In this document: in pieces, positions 8,662 to 62,324 of the stretch
How the letters are laid out: every line of letters starts with the position of its first letter
Position numbering within the stretch: position 1 is the first letter of the stretch
Assembly: GCA_043808365.1 (NCBI GenBank)
Contig: JAZDEZ010000007.1
Coordinates: 73,637-137,636 of the forward strand
Source: Patescibacteria group bacterium
GTDB taxonomy: Bacteria; Patescibacteriota; Patescibacteriia; UBA10025; JAHIVO01
Direction of reading: 5' to 3'
DNA length: 64,000 nt
The notes under the pieces: generated by a model
What the model saw: only the letters and a program-made list of their open reading frames with translations
What the model was told of the DNA's origin: nothing
Databases searched by the model: none
Made by a program: the position numbers and the translations under genes

Positions 8662-8695
8662 TGGACCAAAGTGGACTTGAACCCCTGACCTCCTC
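8662..8695 (-). pseudogene. tRNA-Ala-like 3' fragment (variable loop, T arm and acceptor strand) abutting a GC-clamp cassette
   Basis: The minus strand reads GAGGAGGTC AGGGG TTCAAGT CCACT TTGGTCC A. It is nearly identical to the 3' end of the interrupted tRNA-Ala at 9149-9198. Confidence 0.6.
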
Positions 8696-8805
8696 CCCGC
8701 CTGCCGAAGCCATTGGACCGTACCGGAATCGAACCGGTAACCTCTTCCATGCCATGGAAGCGCGCTACCAATTGCGCCAACGGCCCACTGGTTTCAGCAG
8801 GCGGG
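8696..8805 (-). mobile_element. GC-clamp cassette carrying tRNA-Ala(GGC)
   Basis: CCCGCCTGCC (8696-8705) and GCAGGCGGG (8797-8805) are complementary. The inner 7-mers GAAACCA/TGGCTTC pair 6/7 and flank the tRNA. Confidence 0.5.
8714..8786 (-). tRNA. tRNA-Ala (anticodon GGC), no encoded CCA
   Basis: Manual cloverleaf: GGGCCGT TG GCGC AATTGGTA GCGC G CTTCC ATGGCAT GGAAG AGGTT ACCGG TTCGATT CCGGT ACGGTCC A. The G3:U70 Ala identity pair is present. Confidence 0.85.
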
Positions 8806-8869
8806 AATCAGCCTTTTGAGCCTGAGGCTCATAATTAACCTTATTTTATAACATTTTTCAAAATTGTTC

Positions 8870-8969
8870 CCCGCCTGCCATGCCTATTAGTAAATTTTCA
8901 TGATGTTCCACGTGGAACAGTTAGATTATATTATTGCCAATATTGATCAACTTAGCAATGGCGGGCAGG
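8870..8969. mobile_element. GC-clamp cassette with non-tRNA cargo, inserted precisely into a GTTCCACGTGGAAC palindrome
   Basis: It is bounded by CCCGCCTGCC (8870-8879) and GGCGGGCAGG (8960-8969). The flanks GTTC (8866-8869) and CACGTGGAAC (8970-8979) rejoin into the perfect 14-bp palindrome. The cargo itself holds an intact copy at 8905-8918 and TTGATCAA at 8943-8950. Confidence 0.6.
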
Positions 8970-9101
8970 CACGTGGAACATCCATTTCCTTTCTGGTCTG
9001 GTCTGGTGGACCTGGGGAGAATCTCTGCCAGAGGCAGACCTCGCCCTACCTTGATTAATTTTATTTATTGTGGCGGGGGAACTCCGATATATAGGTCACT
9101 T

Positions 9102-9148: not shown

Positions 9149-9370
9149 TGGACCAAAGGGGAGTCGAACCCCTGACCTCTGCAATGCGAATGCAGCGCCC
9201 CGCCTGCCATCGCCAATGGACCTAGGGAGAATCGAACTCCCGTCTGAGCAATGCGAATGCCCTGTACTACCACTGTACGATAGGCCCAATGGCCATGGCG
9301 GGCAGGTAACCAATTCCGACGTTTCAGTCGGAATCCCGACCGCTTCGCGTCGGGACTGAGCTATTGGCCC
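9149..9370 (-). other. Interrupted tRNA-Ala(CGC) gene: 5' piece 9355-9370 (plus TGGTTA at 9307-9312) and 3' piece 9149-9198, split in the D-loop
   Basis: The outer pieces GGGCCAA TA GCTC AGT..TGGTTA and (GG)GC G CTGCA TTCGCAT TGCAG AGGTC AGGGG TTCGACT CCCCT TTGGTCC A give 7/7 acceptor pairs including G3:U70. The interruption consists of two small hairpins (9313-9354) plus cassette 9199-9306. Confidence 0.6.
9217..9287 (-). tRNA. tRNA-Ala (anticodon CGC), no encoded CCA, nested inside the interrupted tRNA-Ala
   Basis: GGGCCTA TC GTAC AGTGGTA GTAC A GGGCA TTCGCAT TGCTC AGAC GGGAG TTCGATT CTCCC TAGGTCC A. G3:U70 is present. It is flanked by ATGGCCA/TGGCGAT adaptors and the 10-mers at 9199-9208 and 9297-9306. 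Confidence 0.8.
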
Positions 9371-9448: not shown

Positions 9449-9629
9449 TGCCCTCGAGAGGAATCGAACCTCTATCTATCCCTTAGGACGGGATTGTTCT
9501 ACCCGCCTGCCATTACCATTGCCCCCACCAGGAATTGAACCTGGATCTAAGGCTTAGGAGTCCTTTGTTCTATCCGTTGAACTATAGGGGCATGGGCAAC
9601 GGCGGGCAGGTCCATTGAACTATGAGGGC
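9449..9629 (-). other. Interrupted tRNA-Arg(CCU) gene: 5' piece 9611-9629 and 3' piece 9449-9501, split in the D-loop by a 109-bp cassette
   Basis: The joined pieces give GCCCTCA TA GTTC AATGGA|TA GAAC A ATCCC GTCCTAA GGGAT AGAT AGAGG TTCGATT CCTCT CGAGGGC A (72 nt, 6/7 acceptor pairs). The unusual G32 could indicate decay. Confidence 0.6.
9520..9591 (-). tRNA. tRNA-Arg (anticodon CCU), no encoded CCA, nested inside the interrupted tRNA-Arg
   Basis: GCCCCTA TA GTTC AACGGATA GAAC A AAGGA CTCCTAA GCCTT AGAT CCAGG TTCAATT CCTGG TGGGGGC A. There is one A31-G39 mismatch. It is flanked by the 10-mers at 9502-9511 and 9601-9610. Confidence 0.75.
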
Positions 9630-9895
9630 ATAATATCCATTGCCCGCCAGAGGCGGGTCCGCCTTGGGCAGAAACTATAGAGGCATCGACAAGGGCGGAT
9701 TAGTCCATTATCAGCCAAAGGCATGTCCCCGCCCACCTGCTATCCTGCCCGACATGCCGTCATGGCAGGCGGGCGCAGGCTACAGGCGCGGCGCCTTCGG
9801 CGAAAAGTATAAGGGATTGTAATATCCACAACAGCGTAGAGTTGGGGCTCCGACTAAAGCGTCGGGATTGCCATGCCCATATCCACGTGTATTTA

Positions 9896-9995
9896 AAGAA
9901 TGTTCCACGTGGAACGTATATATTTACGTTCCGTGGAACAATTTAACTATTCAATTGCTATTATTGATCAATTTGGCAATAGCGGACAGATACAT
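9896..9995. repeat. Degenerate second copy of the palindrome-cargo element at the right edge of the tRNA island
   Basis: It contains GTTCCACGTGGAAC (9902-9915), GTTCC-GTGGAAC (9927-9939), TTGATCAA (9964-9971) and a decayed terminus AGCGGACAG. It aligns with 8899-8969. Confidence 0.6.
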
Positions 9996-16215: not shown

Positions 16216-16249
16216 AACTCCACTCTGATTTCTCGGGTGGAGTCTTTTT
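16216..16249 (+). terminator. Intrinsic terminator
   Basis: AACTCCAC-N13-GTGGAGT followed by a T-run. It directly abuts the repeat at 16251. Confidence 0.7.
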
Positions 16250-16250
16250 A

Positions 16251-16427
16251 TTAGCTTAGCAAAATTTTCGAGCCGATCATAATTCCTTAGTTAAAAAAGA
16301 GGCGATGAAAATTTGGCTAAGCTAATAATCCCGAGTAACCCGAAGGGAGCGAGGGATCTGACTAAATTTTCAAGCCGACCATAATTCCTTAGTTAAAAAA
16401 GAGGCGATGAAAATTTGGCTAAGATAA
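16251..16427. repeat. Tandem pair of ~75-bp MITE-like units with ~19-bp terminal inverted repeats (TTAGCTTAGCAAAATTTTC / GAAAATTTGGCTAAGCTAA), separated by an ATCCCGAG..CGAGGGATC hairpin
   Basis: Units lie at 16251-16325 and 16359-16427. The same family occurs at 50488-50673, with identical termini and a different interior. Confidence 0.8.
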
Positions 16428-16576
16428 CAATCCCGAAAAGGCCGGCAGGTAGCATAATTGGAGCGAATATCAAGTTTCGGCTAACCGAATGTTGACTGAA
16501 AATTCGAAAAATGCTAATAATTAACCATATAATATGATAGTTTTTGTCCTTTAACATTTTTTAATTGGAGGATCTC

Positions 16577-23578: not shown

Positions 23579-23653
23579 TGGTGGGTGCACCAGGATTCGA
23601 ACCTGGAACCACCACTTTATAAGAGTGGCGCTCTACCATTGAGCTATGCACCC
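23579..23653 (-). tRNA. tRNA-Ile (anticodon UAU) with encoded CCA
   Basis: GGGTGCA TA GCTC AATGGTA GAGC G CCACT CTTATAA AGTGG TGGTT CCAGG TTCGAAT CCTGG TGCACCC A CCA. All stems are perfect. Confidence 0.9.
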
Positions 23654-23739
23654 ATAATAATTTCGCAAATCTTTTTTAACATCAACCCCCACGGCACCTG
23701 TCCCCCGAAGTCCCGAACGAAGTGAGGGAACGAAGGGGG

Positions 23740-23883
23740 ATAAGAGTGGTGCTCCCTGCCCCGTAAAAACGAACGTAGTGAGTTTTGTACGGGGTAACCA
23801 ACTGCCTGCCCCGATAGAAATCGAAGATTTCGTACGGGGCCTGCCCGCCGCAGCGTACTCACGAAGGCGGGAGCTATGCACCC
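23740..23883 (-). pseudogene. Duplicated tRNA-Ile(UAU) 5' half broken into three pieces by GC-rich hairpin insertions
   Basis: The pieces GGGTGCATAGCTC (23883-23871), AGTTGGTTA (23803-23795) and GAGCACCACTCTTAT (23754-23740) concatenate to acceptor strand, D arm and anticodon stem/loop up to UAU. The gaps are CCTG-prefixed hairpins. Confidence 0.65.
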
Positions 23884-23914
23884 ACGCATTATCATCCTAA
23901 TATAAATTATAACA

Positions 23915-24022
23915 AATTACCAATATCCAATTACAAATATCCAATCAATTCTCAAAATCCCAATAAAGCAATTGAACATTGGTCATTCATTGGATATTGG
24001 CTATTATAAAATTGGATATTAG
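23915..24022. repeat. AT-rich CCAAT/ATTGG long palindromic element
   Basis: Arms CCAATATCCAAT (23920-23931) and ATTGGATATTGG (23989-24000) are exact reverse complements. It is homologous to 32070-32188. Confidence 0.75.
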
Positions 24023-31883: not shown

Positions 31884-32069
31884 TCGTACGGCAACGGCTT
31901 TAACCTAACTGTTTATGTGGCTCGGGTAGTCCGAAGAATCAAATTGCTTAAAAATACCTAAACTTCTTTACTACCCTAAGCTACTCATCCTTGGTTGAAT
32001 TTTTGTTTATCGCATACGGTATAATGATTGAAAAAACTCCAAAAAAAAGATATACTAGGCATACAAATG

Positions 32070-32188
32070 ACTAATAACCAATATCCAATTTCCAATAAAA
32101 TCCCAATTCCCAAATGCCCAATTAATCATTGTGAAATTGGTCATTGGACATTCATTGGATATTGGAAATTGGTAATTGGAAATTGTTA
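32070..32188. repeat. AT-rich CCAAT/ATTGG long palindromic element
   Basis: Arms CCAATATCCAAT (32078-32089) and ATTGGATATTGG (32154-32165). It shares AAAATCCCAAT, ATTGGTCATT and CATTCATTGGATATTGG with 23915-24022. Confidence 0.75.
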
Positions 32189-37101: not shown

Positions 37102-37389
37102 ATGTACACATACTACGTCTACATCATGACAAATAAATTCAATCGTGTCTTATATACCGGCGTTACTAATAATTTAATACGCCGAGTTCTTGAACATAAG
37201 ACAAAAGTTTCGTCTGGTTTTACCAGCCGATATAATGCCACAAAACTTTTATACTACGAAGAAACAAACGATATTGGAGTAGCTATAGGTCGCGAGAAAC
37301 AGATTAAAGGCTGGATTCGGAAAAAGAAGGTTGTGTTGATAAAAACCATAAACCCCACTTGGCAAGATTTAAGCGAATACTTTTTCTAA
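37102..37389 (+). CDS. GIY-YIG nuclease family protein (UPF0213-like)
   Basis: 95 aa. YYVYIMTNKFNRVLYTGVTNNLIRRVLEHK .. REKQIKGW. Confidence 0.85.
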   Translation: MYTYYVYIMTNKFNRVLYTGVTNNLIRRVLEHKTKVSSGFTSRYNATKLLYYEETNDIGVAIGREKQIKGWIRKKKVVLIKTINPTWQDLSEYFF

Positions 37390-37644
37390 TTGTCATTCTG
37401 AAGCCGAGCGTCAGCGAGGATGATGAATCTCCTGACCGCAGGTCAGGAGACGCTTCGCTTCACTCAGCGTGACAATAAAGGGGATGGGACTTGCCGAATT
37501 TGTTACAGCATCCATAACTATAACGGAGGATGGTTTTTTTATCTCCCGAGCGCACCTCTCCGCGGGTGCGCGTCTATCCAAAAAAAGGGGGGTTGCTTCA
37601 TTGTTCCACTCCTCACTATGACAAACTATAAGCGCTTCCTCATA

Positions 37645-38062: not shown

Positions 38063-38296
38063 ATGGGATTACCAGCAAAACGCCGGACAAAACAGTCAAA
38101 ACGAGAACGCGCTGCGCACTTTGCGCTCACGGTACAGCAATTGGCCAGCTGCCCAAAATGCAAAAAACCGATCCGGCCGCACCACGTGTGTGATTTTTGC
38201 GGTTTTTACAAGGGCAAGGACGTGCTGATGCTGGATACGAAAGCTGACCGCAAAAAAAAGAAAGCCAAGAAAAAAGAGGCTAAGGCAAAGAAATAA
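38063..38296 (+). CDS. rpmF: 50S ribosomal protein L32 with a Lys-rich C-terminal extension
   Basis: MGLPAKRRTKQSKRERAAH.. CPKCKKPIRPHHVCDFCGFYKGKDV. Confidence 0.9.
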   Translation: MGLPAKRRTKQSKRERAAHFALTVQQLASCPKCKKPIRPHHVCDFCGFYKGKDVLMLDTKADRKKKKAKKKEAKAKK

Positions 38297-38298
38297 AT

Positions 38299-38447
38299 AG
38301 CCAATTCCTAATTACTAATTTCCCCGCCTGCTTCGCCTTTGCGAAGCAAATGGCGGGCAGGTAATCAATCCCCAATGATTTAATGACTAATTGAACATTT
38401 AGGAATTAATCATTGATTAAATATTAGAAATTGAGTATTAGAAATTC
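38299..38447. repeat. AT-rich palindromic element with a nested GC-clamp hairpin (38322-38361)
   Basis: The outer arms are AATTCCTAATTACTAATTTC and GAAATTGAGTATTAGAAATT. The nested part is CCCCGCCTGC-TTCGCCTTTGCGAAGCAAAT-GGCGGGCAGG. The 15-mer CTAATTACTAATTTC is the reverse complement of 5608-5622. Confidence 0.7.
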
Positions 38448-39069: not shown

Positions 39070-39759
39070 ATGAAAGAAATCAACGAGCTAGAAAAAAACA
39101 TCAAAATCACCTTCAAGAGCCAGGACCTCCTGCGGCAGGCCATGGTCCATCGTTCGTATCTCAATGAGCATCCGGAGTTCCCCCTGCCCCACAACGAGCG
39201 GCTGGAATTTTTAGGCGACGCGGTGCTGGAGCTGGTCGTGACGGAATACCTCTACGCTAAATATCCGAACCCGGAGGGCGACCTGACCAACTGGCGCGCC
39301 AGCCTGGTCAACTCAAAAATGCTGGCGCAGATTGCCCAGGCCTGCGACCTCAACGGCTACCTCTACTTATCGAAAGGCGAATCAAAGGACGCAAACTCGA
39401 AAGCCAGGCAGTTCATCATGGCCAACGCTTTCGAAGCCCTTATCGGCGCCATCTACCTGGACCAAGGCTGGGAATCGGCGAAAAAATTCATCCATGAACA
39501 GATCCTTTTCCATCTGGAAGGCATCATCGCCAATAAAGCCTATCAGGACCCGAAAAGCCGGTTCCAGGAATTGAGCCAGGAAAATTACGGAATCACGCCG
39601 TCTTACCAAGTATTGTCCGAGAACGGTCCGGACCACGCGAAAAATTTCGTCATCGGTTTGTTCTTGGGCAAAGAGCGAATCGCCACCGGCGAAGGCTTGT
39701 CAAAACAGGAAGCGCAGGTCGCCGCCGCCGAGGCCGGGCTGAAAGTAAAAAACTGGTAG
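39070..39759 (+). CDS. rnc: Ribonuclease III
   Basis: 229 aa. Signature NERLEFLGDAVLELVV, followed by a dsRBD (KSRFQELSQ...GEGLSKQEAQVAAAEAGL). Confidence 0.95.
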   Translation: MKEINELEKNIKITFKSQDLLRQAMVHRSYLNEHPEFPLPHNERLEFLGDAVLELVVTEYLYAKYPNPEGDLTNWRASLVNSKMLAQIAQACDLNGYLYLSKGESKDANSKARQFIMANAFEALIGAIYLDQGWESAKKFIHEQILFHLEGIIANKAYQDPKSRFQELSQENYGITPSYQVLSENGPDHAKNFVIGLFLGKERIATGEGLSKQEAQVAAAEAGLKVKNW

Positions 39760-62289: not shown

Positions 62290-62324
62290 CCCCGCCTGCC
62301 GTGCCTATAGCACTGGCGGGCAGG
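62290..62324. repeat. Minimal GC-clamp hairpin element (14-nt cargo)
   Basis: CCCCGCCTGCC-GTGCCTATAGCACT-GGCGGGCAGG, with the same termini as the tRNA-carrying cassettes. Confidence 0.7.

Follow-up and report, generated by a model that had tools for sequence, protein, structure and literature searches.

Patescibacteria have tiny genomes and usually one gene per tRNA. Insertion sequences of the IS200/IS605 type move by "peel and paste" single-strand transposition, have subterminal hairpins that differ between the two ends and integrate 3' of a fixed word of 4-5 nt, and the classical DDE MITE combines terminal inverted repeats with a target-site duplication of fixed length. REPINs, which are mobilized by RAYT (HUH Y1), are non-coding units of about 100 nt in which a less conserved spacer separates two conserved ends in inverted orientation, and they are predicted to form a long hairpin (Bertels & Rainey 2011, PMC3116915). 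REP sequences have been described as carrying a conserved tetranucleotide, GTAG or CGTC, at one palindrome end (PMC3733652). Group I introns are found in tRNA genes of Patescibacteria, including at position 35/36; they are at least 200 nt long and self-splicing, and the host tRNA is functional (Nakagawa et al. 2026, PMC13011429).

Here we describe short units with hairpin-forming ends, termed clamps, in a 64,000-nt stretch of a Patescibacteria group bacterium genome (hereafter the window) and in metagenome contigs. Our search of the literature on nested or interrupted tRNA genes and MITE/REP elements in Patescibacteria found no description of such cassettes.

Results

The clamp ends define a family

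A sequence-only reading of the window had proposed a family of elements bounded by two shared 10-mers, to be checked by whether the pair exceeds chance. It does: CCCGCCTGCC has six matches where 0.18 are expected and GGCGGGCAGG seven where 0.17 are expected, an enrichment of more than 30-fold, and the two are paired at 60-90 nt three times against an expectation of 0.00. The 10-mers are the tips of an imperfect terminal inverted repeat of 16-17 nt, and the extended ends, read on the tRNA (minus) strand, are CCTGCCCGCC-AWNGCC ... GGCNWT-GGCAGGCGGG. The ends pair with each other into a GC-rich stem of 16-18 bp that contains a conserved C.A mismatch and a T.G wobble. The units are 30-120 nt in size and contain no ORF, and their loop is empty in minis of 30-40 nt, holds some 70 unconstrained nucleotides in units of ~102 nt and takes in a complete tRNA gene in those of 105-118 nt. 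Most copies are intergenic, and many lie directly after stop codons or between genes. Together the copies are supported as one family of ORF-less units with common hairpin-forming ends and differing interiors. The units at 8870-8969, 9199-9306, 9502-9610 and 62291-62324 carry the shared 10-mers as the earlier reading had claimed.

Each window tRNA is nested in a split tRNA gene

The window tRNAs are on the minus strand, and each is nested inside a second, split tRNA gene:

9502-9610, minus strand: tRNA-Arg(CCT) clamp cassette; clamp arms 9610-9601 and 9511-9502, adaptors of 9 and 8 nt, inner tRNA 9592-9519
9449-9629, minus strand: outer (resident) tRNA-Arg(CCT); D loop split AATGGA^TA, 5' part 9629-9611, 3' part 9501-9449
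9199-9306, minus strand: tRNA-Ala(CGC) clamp cassette; inner tRNA 9288-9216 (60.8 bits)
9149-9370, minus strand: outer (resident) tRNA-Ala(CGC), split at the D loop / 3' D stem; also contains two small GC hairpins, 9355-9335 and 9334-9315
8696-8805, minus strand: tRNA-Ala(GGC) clamp cassette; perfect-stem variant CCCGCCTGC...GCAGGCGGG, inner tRNA 8787-8713 (64.3 bits)
8662-8695, minus strand: 3' remnant of an older tRNA-Ala(GGC), from the 3' strand of the anticodon stem to the acceptor end; matches the 3' part of the intact tRNA-Ala(GGC) of contig L084
9634-9684, minus strand: 5' fragment of an apparent third layer, a still older tRNA-Arg-like gene; GCCTCTATAGTT, a GC hairpin, then AATGGATA

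The sequence-only reading had recognized whole tRNAs as an unusual cargo, which is correct, but it missed the main point, that each lies within a split resident gene of the same anticodon. Its 7-bp adaptors are in fact 8-10 nt long and mutually paired, lengthening the clamp to a stem of 17-18 bp beneath the cloverleaf. As single-stranded DNA, the tRNA-bearing units are predicted to present a cloverleaf atop this long stem, as in the tRNA-Arg(CCT) cassette (65.6 bits; cloverleaf on a predicted 17-18 bp stem). The tRNA cargo claimed for 8696-8805 is also there, and the fold of that cassette has z = -7.95; its right end, however, is GCAGGCGGG, a perfect inverted repeat of the left end, and not GGCGGGCAGG.

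When the cassette is deleted from 9449-9629, ARAGORN finds a tRNA-Arg(cct) whose junction follows base 20, and removal of the cassette and both GC hairpins from 9149-9370 likewise yields tRNA-Ala(cgc). The ARAGORN/Rfam "tRNA" at 9149-9222 was rejected as a separate gene, being the 3' part of the split tRNA-Ala(CGC). By eye, 8830-8806 is possibly the 5' remnant of the older tRNA-Ala(GGC), and the third layer at 9634-9684 is assigned, with caution, on its similarity to the Arg genes.

A split palindrome and tRNA-less copies

Clamps in the window also occur without a tRNA:

8870-8969, minus strand: 100-nt clamp cassette without tRNA; intact GTTCCACGTGGAAC in its interior (8905-8918)
8866-8979, no strand assigned: target palindrome GTTC / CACGTGGAAC split by the 100-nt cassette; promoter-associated site, 35 nt upstream of the old tRNA 5' end
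~9868-9990, minus strand: decayed paralogue of the 100-nt cassette, upstream of the tRNA array; clamps degenerate, intact palindrome 9902-9915
9744-9773, plus strand: 30-nt "empty" clamp hairpin, CCTGCCCGAC-ATGCCGTCAT-GGCAGGCGGG
62291-62324, minus strand: 34-nt "empty" clamp hairpin, 25 nt 3' of an ORF
38322-38361, minus strand: 40-nt clamp hairpin, centred in an AT-rich palindrome that spans 38292-38418
23840-23871: partial clamp copy

The flanks GTTC (8866-8869) and CACGTGGAAC (8970-8979) rejoin exactly into GTTCCACGTGGAAC, just as the earlier reading had described, and the intact palindrome is otherwise present only at 8905-8918 and 9902-9915 (two matches against 0.01 expected). The limits of the decayed paralogue are approximate and were set by comparison with 8870-8969 and with L081 14706-14592. 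The copy at 38322-38361 is a hairpin within an AT-rich palindrome, as had been noted, although its left end agrees with the 10-mer at only 9 of 10 bases.

Empty sites and ancestry in related genomes

Related loci were reached via homologues of the window genes, the exact-protein look-up having given no match. At the same locus, L081 and L205 have an uninterrupted tRNA-Arg(CCT) and L084 an uninterrupted tRNA-Ala(CGC) plus intact palindromes; L084 and L205 have an unbroken GTTCCACGTGGAAC at positions equivalent to the split palindrome of the window, and orthologues of the 100-nt cassette are present in L081. These empty sites are direct proof of insertion. The Arg insert is found in the window and L084 and is absent from L081 and L205, and the Ala(CGC) insert is found in the window, L205 and L081, where its clamps are unrecognizable, and is absent from L084. 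Both the uninterrupted homologous sites and the presence/absence variation that the sequence-only reading had called for therefore exist, and its claim that target-site duplication is lacking holds too, with deletion restoring the tRNAs and the palindrome exactly.

The outer tRNA-Arg of the window is 88-89% identical to the uninterrupted L081/L205 genes and only 75% identical to the inner gene, which in turn shares 94% identity with the inner gene in L084. The Arg-locus identities are pairwise, a MAFFT alignment having matched the intact genes to the inner copy. The same ancestry pattern is seen for tRNA-Ala(CGC), where the outer gene is 87% identical to the uninterrupted L084 gene. Judged by these identities, inner and outer tRNA genes are of different lineages. 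In-situ duplication of the host tRNA in the window was rejected, because inner and outer genes are only 71-75% identical and each has relatives of 86-94% identity elsewhere. Outer tRNA genes have decayed in L084, L205, L192 and L089, Russian-doll structures are found in L177, and serial replacement is seen at Ala(GGC).

The family across metagenomes

A metagenome scan found at least 70 distinct low-GC elements that have the extended ends, and the family recurs in many low-GC contigs that resemble Patescibacteria. In all 70 elements among the matches listed, the ends are CCTG.../CCCG... and ...CGGG/...CAGG; among these matches, lengths peak at 100-103 nt, or at 105-118 nt with tRNA cargo. All 19 exact-clamp tRNA cargos among the matches listed are in a cognate context, with the same anticodon and the same orientation. 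Eighteen of the 19 align forward over their joined flanks (z = 3.7 to 76), and for the L110 cargo (z = 1.3) the anticodon arm of an outer Gly(CCC) was identified by eye. Deletion of the element restored a tRNA in 11 cases, ten of which have the anticodon of the cargo; the apparent exception, L140, is by eye a Val(CAC) plus an extra hairpin. The host sequence is restored to the base, with neither duplication nor loss.

Insertion sites, assigned by eye, are in the D arm (positions 20-26, n = 11), the anticodon loop (34-38, n = 8) and the T loop (n = 1), and in five cassettes the junction falls between anticodon positions 35 and 36. Compared with random sites, the rejoined flanks form better folds (p = 0.004 and p = 0.0002). 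The earlier reading had suggested looking for a conserved nucleotide 5' of the insertion points, and a purine is at -1, 5' of the left end, in 65 of the 70 elements among the matches listed, while the opposite side differs; across the same 70 elements there is no conserved target word of 4-5 nt beyond this purine and a preference for T/G at -2. The one-sided purine preference is a polarity of the kind seen in single-strand insertion.

The interiors of the 102-nt units gave no overlapping match to Rfam or tRNA models even at E up to 10, and they were accordingly rejected as decayed tRNAs or known RNAs. Nor are they copies of their targets, having no similarity to the joined flanks except in the palindrome cassettes. 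Among 2.9 million viral contigs, the clamp pattern gave no tRNA-bearing copy; besides chance matches to GC-rich contigs there were a few minis (L217, L230) and a single 100-nt unit (L216), and a phage vehicle was rejected on this result.

Search for a mobilizing enzyme

The absence of a transposase from the window, noted earlier from its letters, stands for the 50 larger ORFs that were scanned, which cover most of those with 120 aa or more in the 64 kb of genome and have no transposase or HUH/Y1_Tnp domain and no integrase domain. Where clamps are paired at a distance of 250-5000 nt, none of the pairs has a plausible gene between its members, and what the clamp-rich contigs L132 and L177 encode is housekeeping functions. 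Two RAYT-like Y1_Tnp genes came out of a motif scan that took in 1,751 ORFs on the approximately 70 element-bearing contigs among the matches listed: that of L172 is flanked by its own, different palindrome/REP, and that of L130 is a pseudogene invaded by clamps, with no flanking clamp around two close relatives (of more than 8,000 in the database). A RAYT link was therefore rejected as support, neither gene being flanked by this clamp.

Discussion

What might explain tRNA genes that lie inside split genes of the same anticodon? The clamp units are probably small, non-autonomous foldback insertion elements of Patescibacteria that split cognate tRNA genes and replace them, a reading built on what was observed directly: precise insertion, nesting in cognate genes, separate lineages of inner and outer tRNAs, outer genes in decay and targets that are preferentially hairpins. 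The whole element enters as a unit, without target duplication or loss. Its target is a hairpin where it is single-stranded, in most cases within the loop or at the edge of loop and 3' stem, and usually just 3' of a purine. Insertion into a tRNA gene breaks the resident gene, and the copies seen there all bring an intact tRNA that matches it in anticodon and orientation. The resident promoter would drive the inner tRNA, which would take over while the split outer gene decays, and repeated rounds would generate Russian-doll loci and a turnover of tRNA lineages at one locus. With the cognate tRNA carried inside the split resident gene, the units are thus probably self-complementing cassettes that replace tRNA genes. 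The mobile form may be a folded single strand, acted on by an HUH-like or GIY-YIG-like nuclease/ligase that is supplied in trans and recognizes both structure and sequence.

Several observations count against this favoured reading: the scans identified no mobilizing enzyme, no genome was seen to have the same copy at two sites, excision junctions were not seen either, and the spare loop length beside the tRNA cargo is only 2-9 nt, which bears on the route of tRNA capture. The cognate-only pattern may reflect selection for rescue, cargo-aided targeting, or both. Random insertion followed by selection predicts intergenic tRNA-bearing copies, of which there are none among the 19, so a further restriction to cognate genes is needed, for which homology, homing and origin in situ are candidates.

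A bolder version, tentative but possible, would make the clamps a distinct class of selfish, gene-overwriting, protein-less hairpin cassettes that destroy an essential gene and carry a functional copy of it as cargo. Likeness of cargo and target (tRNA arm with tRNA arm, palindrome with palindrome) would guide the cassette to the cognate gene, and the mobilizer would be a structure-specific nuclease, possibly an Slx1-like GIY-YIG enzyme, cutting stem-closed DNA at its base and pasting it into loops. If such a class exists, it would imply continual horizontal tRNA gene turnover across Patescibacteria, and the same base-cutting activity would account for tRNA capture into the clamp loop.

Homing rather than transposition is an unlikely alternative. 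A nuclease encoded elsewhere, such as a small GIY-YIG protein near tRNAs, would cut the uninterrupted tRNA gene, and repair from a clamp-plus-tRNA allele would follow, the resident tRNA halves serving as homology arms; the insert would abolish the cut site and supply a resistant tRNA, with spread confined to cognate genes. This accounts for the cognate, same-orientation nesting in 19 of 19 cases among the matches listed, and for the reuse of positions within a cargo lineage (Val 37/38 twice, Gly(CCC) 35/36 twice, Arg GGA^TA in the window and L084). GIY-YIG ORFs are present on seven of the approximately 70 element-bearing contigs among the matches listed, plus one in the window at 37102-37389, and on none of the other loci (~1.5 Mb), an enrichment that may be a lineage effect, as the comparison loci are mostly not Patescibacteria. 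Six of the eight small GIY-YIG ORFs adjoin tRNA genes; in L110 and L131 the order is a tRNA 5' fragment, the GIY-YIG ORF and the full cognate tRNA, and in L262 a GIY-YIG ORF, a clamp-like hairpin and tRNA-Lys are in a row. In L130 and L255-L261, the HUH motif of RAYT genes is the site of a GIY-YIG ORF accompanied by inverted repeats that resemble the clamp; these are related to it but differ in sequence. Clamp-like motifs are, however, near only three of nine independent GIY-YIG lineages. A clamp-bounded GIY-YIG element was rejected on these grounds, the repeats being different and most of the ORFs having no clamp nearby, and the tie between clamps and the GIY-YIG nuclease genes near tRNAs is retained only as a lead. 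Homing leaves unexplained the clamps in non-tRNA hairpins, the minis and the copies nested in one another; at the palindrome cassette the homology arms would be just 10 and 4 nt, the cutting specificity of the GIY-YIG proteins is putative, and homing gives no reason for the strong conservation of the ends.

It is quite improbable that the clamp is an RNA processing or stability stem, comparable with RNase III-cut rRNA intervening sequences and rRNA leader-trailer stems, that is kept for that role, with an outer tRNA that might work split or spliced. At orthologous sites of L087 and L173 the clamp ends are conserved and the interiors have drifted and are scrambled, which also counts against the favoured reading and could instead mean a host function of the stem. 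Many copies follow stop codons or are intergenic, RNase III is encoded in the window (39070-39759), and the inner tRNA sits atop a long leader-trailer helix. Against this, the outer genes have decayed in several genomes and so are not maintained, a working split tRNA is impossible after insertion into the anticodon loop, bulge-helix-bulge geometry is absent, the sole Rfam family matched is tRNA, and both clamp orientations relative to the tRNA occur (14 versus 5). A DNA-level insertion mechanism, proven by the empty sites, would still be required.

Scars of ordinary tRNA-gene events (integrase islands with partial tRNA duplication that were later deleted, local tandem duplication, or assembly artefacts) are hardly credible: tRNA fragments beside full genes are common in these genomes, a serine-recombinase island abuts tRNA-Arg in L081, 5' and 3' fragments lie ~80 nt from tRNA-Ala in L003 like att duplications, and L177 shows tandem amplification, but the outer halves border directly on the clamp and add up to a single complete tRNA without overlap or gap, inner and outer genes differ in lineage, inserts from many independently assembled samples are bounded by the same 20 terminal bases, and identical structures recur in the independent assemblies L081/L082/L083 and L087/L114.

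For the favoured reading, replacement by an inserted cassette, the consequences are several. An element that splits a single tRNA gene and yet brings the replacement alters tRNA annotation in Patescibacteria; nested and fragmented genes mislead tRNA finders, as in the false call at 9149-9222, and tRNA sequences at one locus may not track the phylogeny of the organism. The clamp cassette would be a natural, minimal self-complementing insertion, and its conserved 16-nt hairpin end should have a protein partner. It offers a handle on how insertions build up in the structural RNA genes of these bacteria and on how protein-less hairpin repeats move.

Comparison with known systems

The clamps have the terminal inverted repeats of a MITE, and duplication is absent at all reconstructed sites. 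Archaeal-type tRNA introns are spliced at two 3-nt bulges on either side of a 4-bp helix and their host tRNA is maintained, whereas the clamp junctions are opposed at the base of a 10-bp helix and the outer genes decay. Integron attC sites have RYYYAAC / GTTRRRY cores and a nearby integron integrase, unlike the clamp ends, which are off this consensus in a window without an integrase domain in 50 ORFs. The group I introns, which have a conserved catalytic core fold of some 200 nt or more, are found in the same phylum and the same kind of host gene, and share position 35/36 with five cassettes, but the cassettes are 105-118 nt long, comprise a clamp and a replacement tRNA, reside in a host gene that decays, and gave no Rfam intron match at E up to 5-10.

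The islands and phages that target tRNA genes, such as tycheposons, are kilobases long and integrase-bearing, restore the gene with a partial tRNA copy and duplicate an att core at its 3' or 5' end. Like them, the clamp cassettes enter a tRNA gene, repair it with the tRNA sequence they bring and leave tRNA fragments; unlike them, the unit is 105-118 nt, encodes no protein and nests a whole tRNA in the loop of the old one. In rRNA intervening sequences and Rickettsia palindromic elements the host product keeps working, no spare gene is known, and the ends are not known to be conserved across many genomes. Clamps are similar in being sporadic, stem-closed inserts with variable interiors and no known transposase, in structural RNA loops or inside genes, but they carry a spare tRNA, disable the host gene and have widely conserved ends. 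SegB of phage T4 is a free-standing GIY-YIG homing endonuclease in a tRNA gene cluster that is not known to have nested tRNAs or clamp repeats; small GIY-YIG genes beside tRNAs and the replacement of local tRNA alleles are reminiscent of it, although the GIY-YIG/clamp link here is only circumstantial.

The closest known kinds are REPIN/REP-type foldback elements and single-stranded DNA (HUH-type) transposition into hairpins. The sequence-only reading had pointed to REP/RAYT and IS200/IS605, and the general likeness stands, whereas membership in either does not. With IS200/IS605 the clamps share the lack of target duplication (tRNA and palindrome are exact after deletion), a polar insertion site, imperfect hairpins and a preference for potentially single-stranded DNA; they differ in that their ends pair mutually and that the target preference is for one base only, in place of a word and two hairpins. 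With REPINs they share inverted conserved ends around a spacer, a predicted long hairpin in single-stranded DNA or RNA, a non-coding and non-autonomous nature and a mostly extragenic location. The GTAG/CGTC head is missing from the ends of all 70 elements among the matches listed, and no clamp-flanked RAYT was found in the 50 window ORFs or on the approximately 70 contigs among the matches listed. Unlike the REPIN spacer, that of the clamp can be a complete, predicted functional tRNA gene, and we know of no description of REPIN copies inside genes that they replace, as clamp copies do.

A family of protein-less, hairpin-ended insertions

The window encodes IF-2, FtsH, GyrA, SMC and RNase Y and is a bacterial chromosome segment. 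The source lineage is a divergent one within Patescibacteria (CPR): no match in 185,579 species genomes exceeds 45% identity to the window's IF-2, the top matches being Patescibacteria/Parcubacteria MAGs. A neighbouring TrmB-like protein has an identical counterpart in an NCBI 'Patescibacteria group bacterium' MAG. The two GC-rich terminal 10-mers that form the clamp of these short, ORF-less elements, which the sequence-only reading had singled out, are enriched: CCCGCCTGCC occurs six times in the window against 0.18 expected, GGCGGGCAGG seven times against 0.17, and the pair at 60-90 nt spacing three times against zero. The proposal that the flanks of the copy at 8870-8969 rejoin into a 14-bp palindrome is also correct; joining 8866-8869 to 8970-8979 rebuilds GTTCCACGTGGAAC exactly, and the two intact copies already located at 8905-8918 and 9902-9915 are the only ones in the window (0.01 expected). 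Small corrections aside, that earlier observation of a clamp family stands.

A single search of 241 million metagenome records, with the two 10-mers set at a spacing of 47-107 nt, returned at least 120 stretches. Among the matches listed, about half of the elements come from GC-rich contigs (at least 53% G+C) and resemble chance hits. Those in low-GC contigs (34-52% G+C) have common features far beyond the search pattern: extended ends of the form CCTGCCCGCC-A-W-N-G-C-C ... G-G-C-N-W-T-GGCAGGCGGG, lengths clustering at 100-103 nt without a tRNA and 105-118 nt with one, 30-40 nt 'empty' clamp hairpins (minis), and copies nested within copies. That a conserved, protein-less, hairpin-ended insertion family exists is firmly shown. 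Two contigs classified as viral, L217 (1610-1642) and L230 (three sites), also contain 33-nt empty clamp hairpins that are identical (CCTGCCCGCCAGTGCCAGGCGATGGCAGGCGGG) and have similar flanks.

The tRNA-free interiors matched no Rfam family and, in the elements compared, are unrelated to one another and, palindrome cassettes excepted, to their flanks; at orthologous sites of tRNA-free elements, the ends are conserved and the interior is not. Only the ends of REPINs matter for propagation (PMC3116915), and by analogy conserved ends with free interiors look like an old, REPIN-like foldback repeat family. Alternatively, the ends could be conserved through usefulness of the clamp stem to the host.

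Insertion sites

A purine precedes the CCTGCCCGCC end on its 5' side in 65 of 70 elements (A 42, G 23; matches listed), and the base after the other (GGCAGGCGGG) end is, in the same 70, any except A; a purine on one side and a different rule on the other give the insertion site a polarity. Compared with random positions in their contigs, the joined flanks make better hairpins, both in elements without a tRNA (p = 0.004) and in tRNA-bearing ones (p = 0.0002), and the junction is often in the hairpin loop or at its edge. Copies are mostly intergenic, some directly 3' of a stop codon, and the window mini at 38322 sits at the centre of an AT-rich palindrome. Entry into hairpin loops is firmly shown to proceed without target duplication, as had been claimed from the window. 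Two further kinds of repeat were seen there:

23915-24005 and 32066-32184, intergenic AT-rich palindromic arrays with CCAAT/ATTGG-type words
38292-38418, a third such array, with the 38322 hairpin at its centre
16248-16328 and 16350-16430, tandem copies of a separate ~80 nt repeat with 22-nt inverted ends TTATTAGCTTAGCAAAATTTTC ... GAAAATTTGGCTAAGCTAATAA
50485-50567, third copy of that repeat, 34 kb off

Many metagenomic clamp elements are flanked by short AT-rich repeats similar to those of the arrays.

tRNA genes nested in cognate tRNA genes

Some cassettes (clamp plus interior) carry a tRNA, in the window always on the minus strand. The sequence-only reading was right about this cargo and wrong about 7-bp adaptors, those of the Arg unit being 9 and 8 nt: on the minus strand it runs CCTGCCCGCC, 9-nt adaptor, tRNA-Arg(CCT), 8-nt adaptor, GGCAGGCGGG, flanked by GCCCTCATAGTTCAATGGA on one side and TAGAAC...CGAGGGCA on the other. 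With these 109 nt deleted, ARAGORN calls an outer (resident, split) tRNA-Arg(CCT), the junction falling after base 20 in the D loop. The Ala(CGC) unit splits a second tRNA-Ala(CGC) at the D loop/3' D stem, and the outer gene is restored once the unit and two small GC hairpins are taken out; after the Ala(GGC) unit comes the 3' third of an earlier tRNA-Ala(GGC). The 'tRNA' called by ARAGORN/Rfam at 9149-9222 was rejected as a gene of its own, being the 3' portion of the outer Ala gene that the unit splits. Folded as single strands, the tRNA units are predicted to form a cloverleaf on a 17-18 bp stem of clamp and adaptors. A 'fragment plus full gene' layout without a canonical clamp was observed elsewhere in the window:

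23579-23895, minus strand, tRNA-Ile(TAT) with a copy of its acceptor, D arm and anticodon region lying 5' of it, the copy broken up by several unrelated GC-rich hairpins
23890-23878, GGGTGCATAGCTC, and 23760-23746, GAGCACCACTCTTAT, words of that copy

Nineteen tRNA-bearing elements were compared, 17 from metagenomes (matches listed) and two exact-pattern window units, with Arg(CCT), Arg(TCG), Ala(CGC), Thr(CGT), Thr(TGT), Pro(TGG), Gly(CCC), Trp(CCA), Gln(CTG), Leu(CAG), Val(GAC) and Val(CAC) as cargos. All 19 cargos lie inside a split tRNA of the same anticodon and orientation (matches listed plus window). ARAGORN re-created the outer gene in 11 cases, with the cargo's anticodon in 10; L140, the apparent exception, can be read by eye as Val(CAC) plus one extra hairpin. 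Across the joined flanks, the cargo gives a forward alignment in 18/19 (z = 3.7 to 76), and in the remaining one, L110 (z = 1.3), the outer Gly(CCC) anticodon arm was seen by eye. Clamp orientation relative to the tRNA is 14 versus 5 and consistent within cargo type. Read by eye from the junctions of the 19 elements, plus a mini in L190 counted separately, the insertions fall in the D arm at positions 20-26 (11), the anticodon loop (8: five at 35/36, two at 37/38, one at 34/35) and the T loop (1). L177 is a Russian doll, an Arg cassette within a copy of itself; at 2360-2980 its left unit, made up of clamp, adaptor and the 5' part of the tRNA with two additional hairpins in the D loop, occurs four to five times in tandem, and the right unit only twice. 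Replacement of the cognate resident gene by tRNA-bearing members is firmly shown.

Empty and filled sites in relatives

Syntenic regions were fetched through homologues of a TrmB-like protein (L081-L083, 84% identity; L084, 65%; L205, 63%), and all retain the three tRNAs in unchanged order.

State of three insertion sites in the window and its relatives
tRNA-Arg(CCT): window, nested; L081, uninterrupted; L084, nested, GGA^TA position shared with the window, outer gene decayed; L205, uninterrupted
tRNA-Ala(CGC): window, nested; L081, invader-type gene between outer fragments, without recognisable clamps; L084, uninterrupted; L205, nested, clamps degenerate, outer decayed
GTTCCACGTGGAAC: window, split by cassette; L081, split by two cassettes; L084 and L205, uninterrupted

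Uninterrupted homologous sites and presence/absence variation between relatives, both suggested by the sequence-only reading as checks, were found, the former for Arg (L081, L205), Ala(CGC) (L084) and GTTCCACGTGGAAC (L084, L205), the latter at all three sites. Insertion of clamp units is proven by these genomes. The window outer Arg gene shares 88-89% identity with its uninterrupted counterparts in L081 and L205, to which the window inner gene is only 71-72% identical; that inner gene is 94% identical to the inner gene of L084; for Ala(CGC), the uninterrupted gene of L084 is 87% identical to the window outer gene, and the inner genes of L205 and window share 86%. It is firmly shown that inner and outer genes differ in ancestry, and equally that the outer gene decays. 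Ala(GGC) in L205 has an outer gene of L081 type and an inner gene of L084 type, and in the window a third type lies within what remains of earlier ones, a mixture that indicates serial replacement. The Arg and Ala inserts are distributed incongruently across the four genomes, so several independent gains or losses are needed. At L081 15152-18340, genes for an HTH protein and a serine recombinase (recombinase ORF uncalled in L082) form an island that abuts the intact tRNA-Arg(CCT) of this closest relative and is absent from the window.

Intact palindromes in L084 and L205 lie ~35 nt upstream of tRNA 5' ends and also ~30 nt upstream of a TATAAT preceding a protein gene:

L084 4695-4708 and 5207-5220, GTTCCACGTGGAAC
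L205 11860-11873 and 12473-12486, GTTCCACGTGGAAC
window 8905-8918 and 9902-9915, GTTCCACGTGGAAC

This is a conserved promoter-associated palindrome in the clade and probably a regulator binding site. The cassettes enter it one base into the 3' arm and are the sole tRNA-free case with an interior repeating the target; perhaps this follows the same 'bring a spare' logic as the tRNA cargos.

Mechanism and the search for a mobiliser

What might explain the cognate-only pattern? Insertion into a single-copy tRNA gene is lethal unless the cassette brings a spare. Selection accounts for only half of the pattern: intergenic hairpins contain 48 tRNA-free copies and none of the 19 that bear a tRNA (matches listed plus window), so either the cargo helps choose the target or nested alleles spread otherwise, by recombination or by homing, in which a nuclease would cut the uninterrupted tRNA gene and repair would copy the nested allele with the tRNA halves as arms. 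Such nesting is unlikely to stem from true introns, integrase scars or artefacts. For the clamp itself, the best mechanistic reading is a trans-acting enzyme on a folded single strand, the element being REPIN-like and non-autonomous. Conserved C.A and T.G stem positions and the one-sided purine preference fit folded-strand recognition. HUH enzymes recognise folded strands.

A Pfam scan of the 50 larger window ORFs, which include most of those with 120 aa or more, found no transposase, HUH or integrase domain, in agreement, for these ORFs, with the earlier statement that the window has no transposase. Its comparison with REP/RAYT and IS200/IS605 systems survives in part, as a REPIN-like hairpin; a RAYT flanked by the clamp was not found among the genes checked. 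A motif scan of 1,751 ORFs of element-bearing contigs gave two RAYT-like Y1 genes. The one at L172 4940-5830 is intact and flanked, once interrupted, by its own palindrome TGGGAAGATCATCTTCCCA, a classical REP-RAYT arrangement in a Patescibacteria-like contig, unrelated to the clamp. The other, in L130, is a pseudogene with several clamp insertions and belongs to a huge RAYT+DnaA_C family, two further members of which, when fetched, had no clamp flanking. These RAYT genes were rejected as support for a link to the clamp on account of the different palindrome, the pseudogene and the two relatives.

Small GIY-YIG nuclease ORFs occur on 7 of about 70 element-bearing contigs and in the window, and none in ~1.5 Mb of other fetched loci, mostly non-Patescibacteria; 6/8 adjoin tRNA genes. 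In L110, L131 and L262 such an ORF lies immediately upstream of a complete tRNA (Asp, Trp and Lys).

window 37102-37389, GIY-YIG ORF (95 aa) directly after gyrA, then an ~85 nt imperfect palindrome at 37392-37476
L110 3700-4210 and L131 240-650, 5' fragment of the resident tRNA, GIY-YIG ORF, full cognate tRNA
L154, GIY-YIG ORF downstream of nested tRNA-Trp
L262 (Ca. Woykebacteria) 1500-1890, clamp-like hairpin between GIY-YIG ORF and tRNA-Lys
L130 4040-4460 and L255-L261, GIY-YIG ORF with clamp-like, GC-rich inverted repeats GCCCGTCCGCC ... GGCGGACGGGC, inserted in RAYT+DnaA_C genes at the HUH motif (in L130 exactly before the HUH-motif codons); cassette found on 12 contigs

Judged from gene order, the layout with a 5' fragment is another route to tRNA gene replacement, one that carries a nuclease. 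Clamp-like words are more frequent around GIY-YIG ORFs (5.7 versus 0.49 per kb), an excess with only three independent lineages behind it, and the link to the clamps is a lead, not a result.

Comparison with known systems

A full-text literature search returned nothing on tRNA genes nested within tRNA genes and no description of the clamp words or of MITE/REP-type repeats in Patescibacteria; as far as can be told, a 100-nt unit that replaces an essential gene and itself complements the loss is undescribed. In type, the elements are a variant of foldback repeats already known, with which, as with REPINs, the tRNA-free clamp elements share conserved ends and a free interior. Patescibacteria tRNAs also carry group I introns, the 35/36 site included (PMC13011429), and this site is common to those introns and five of the clamp insertions.
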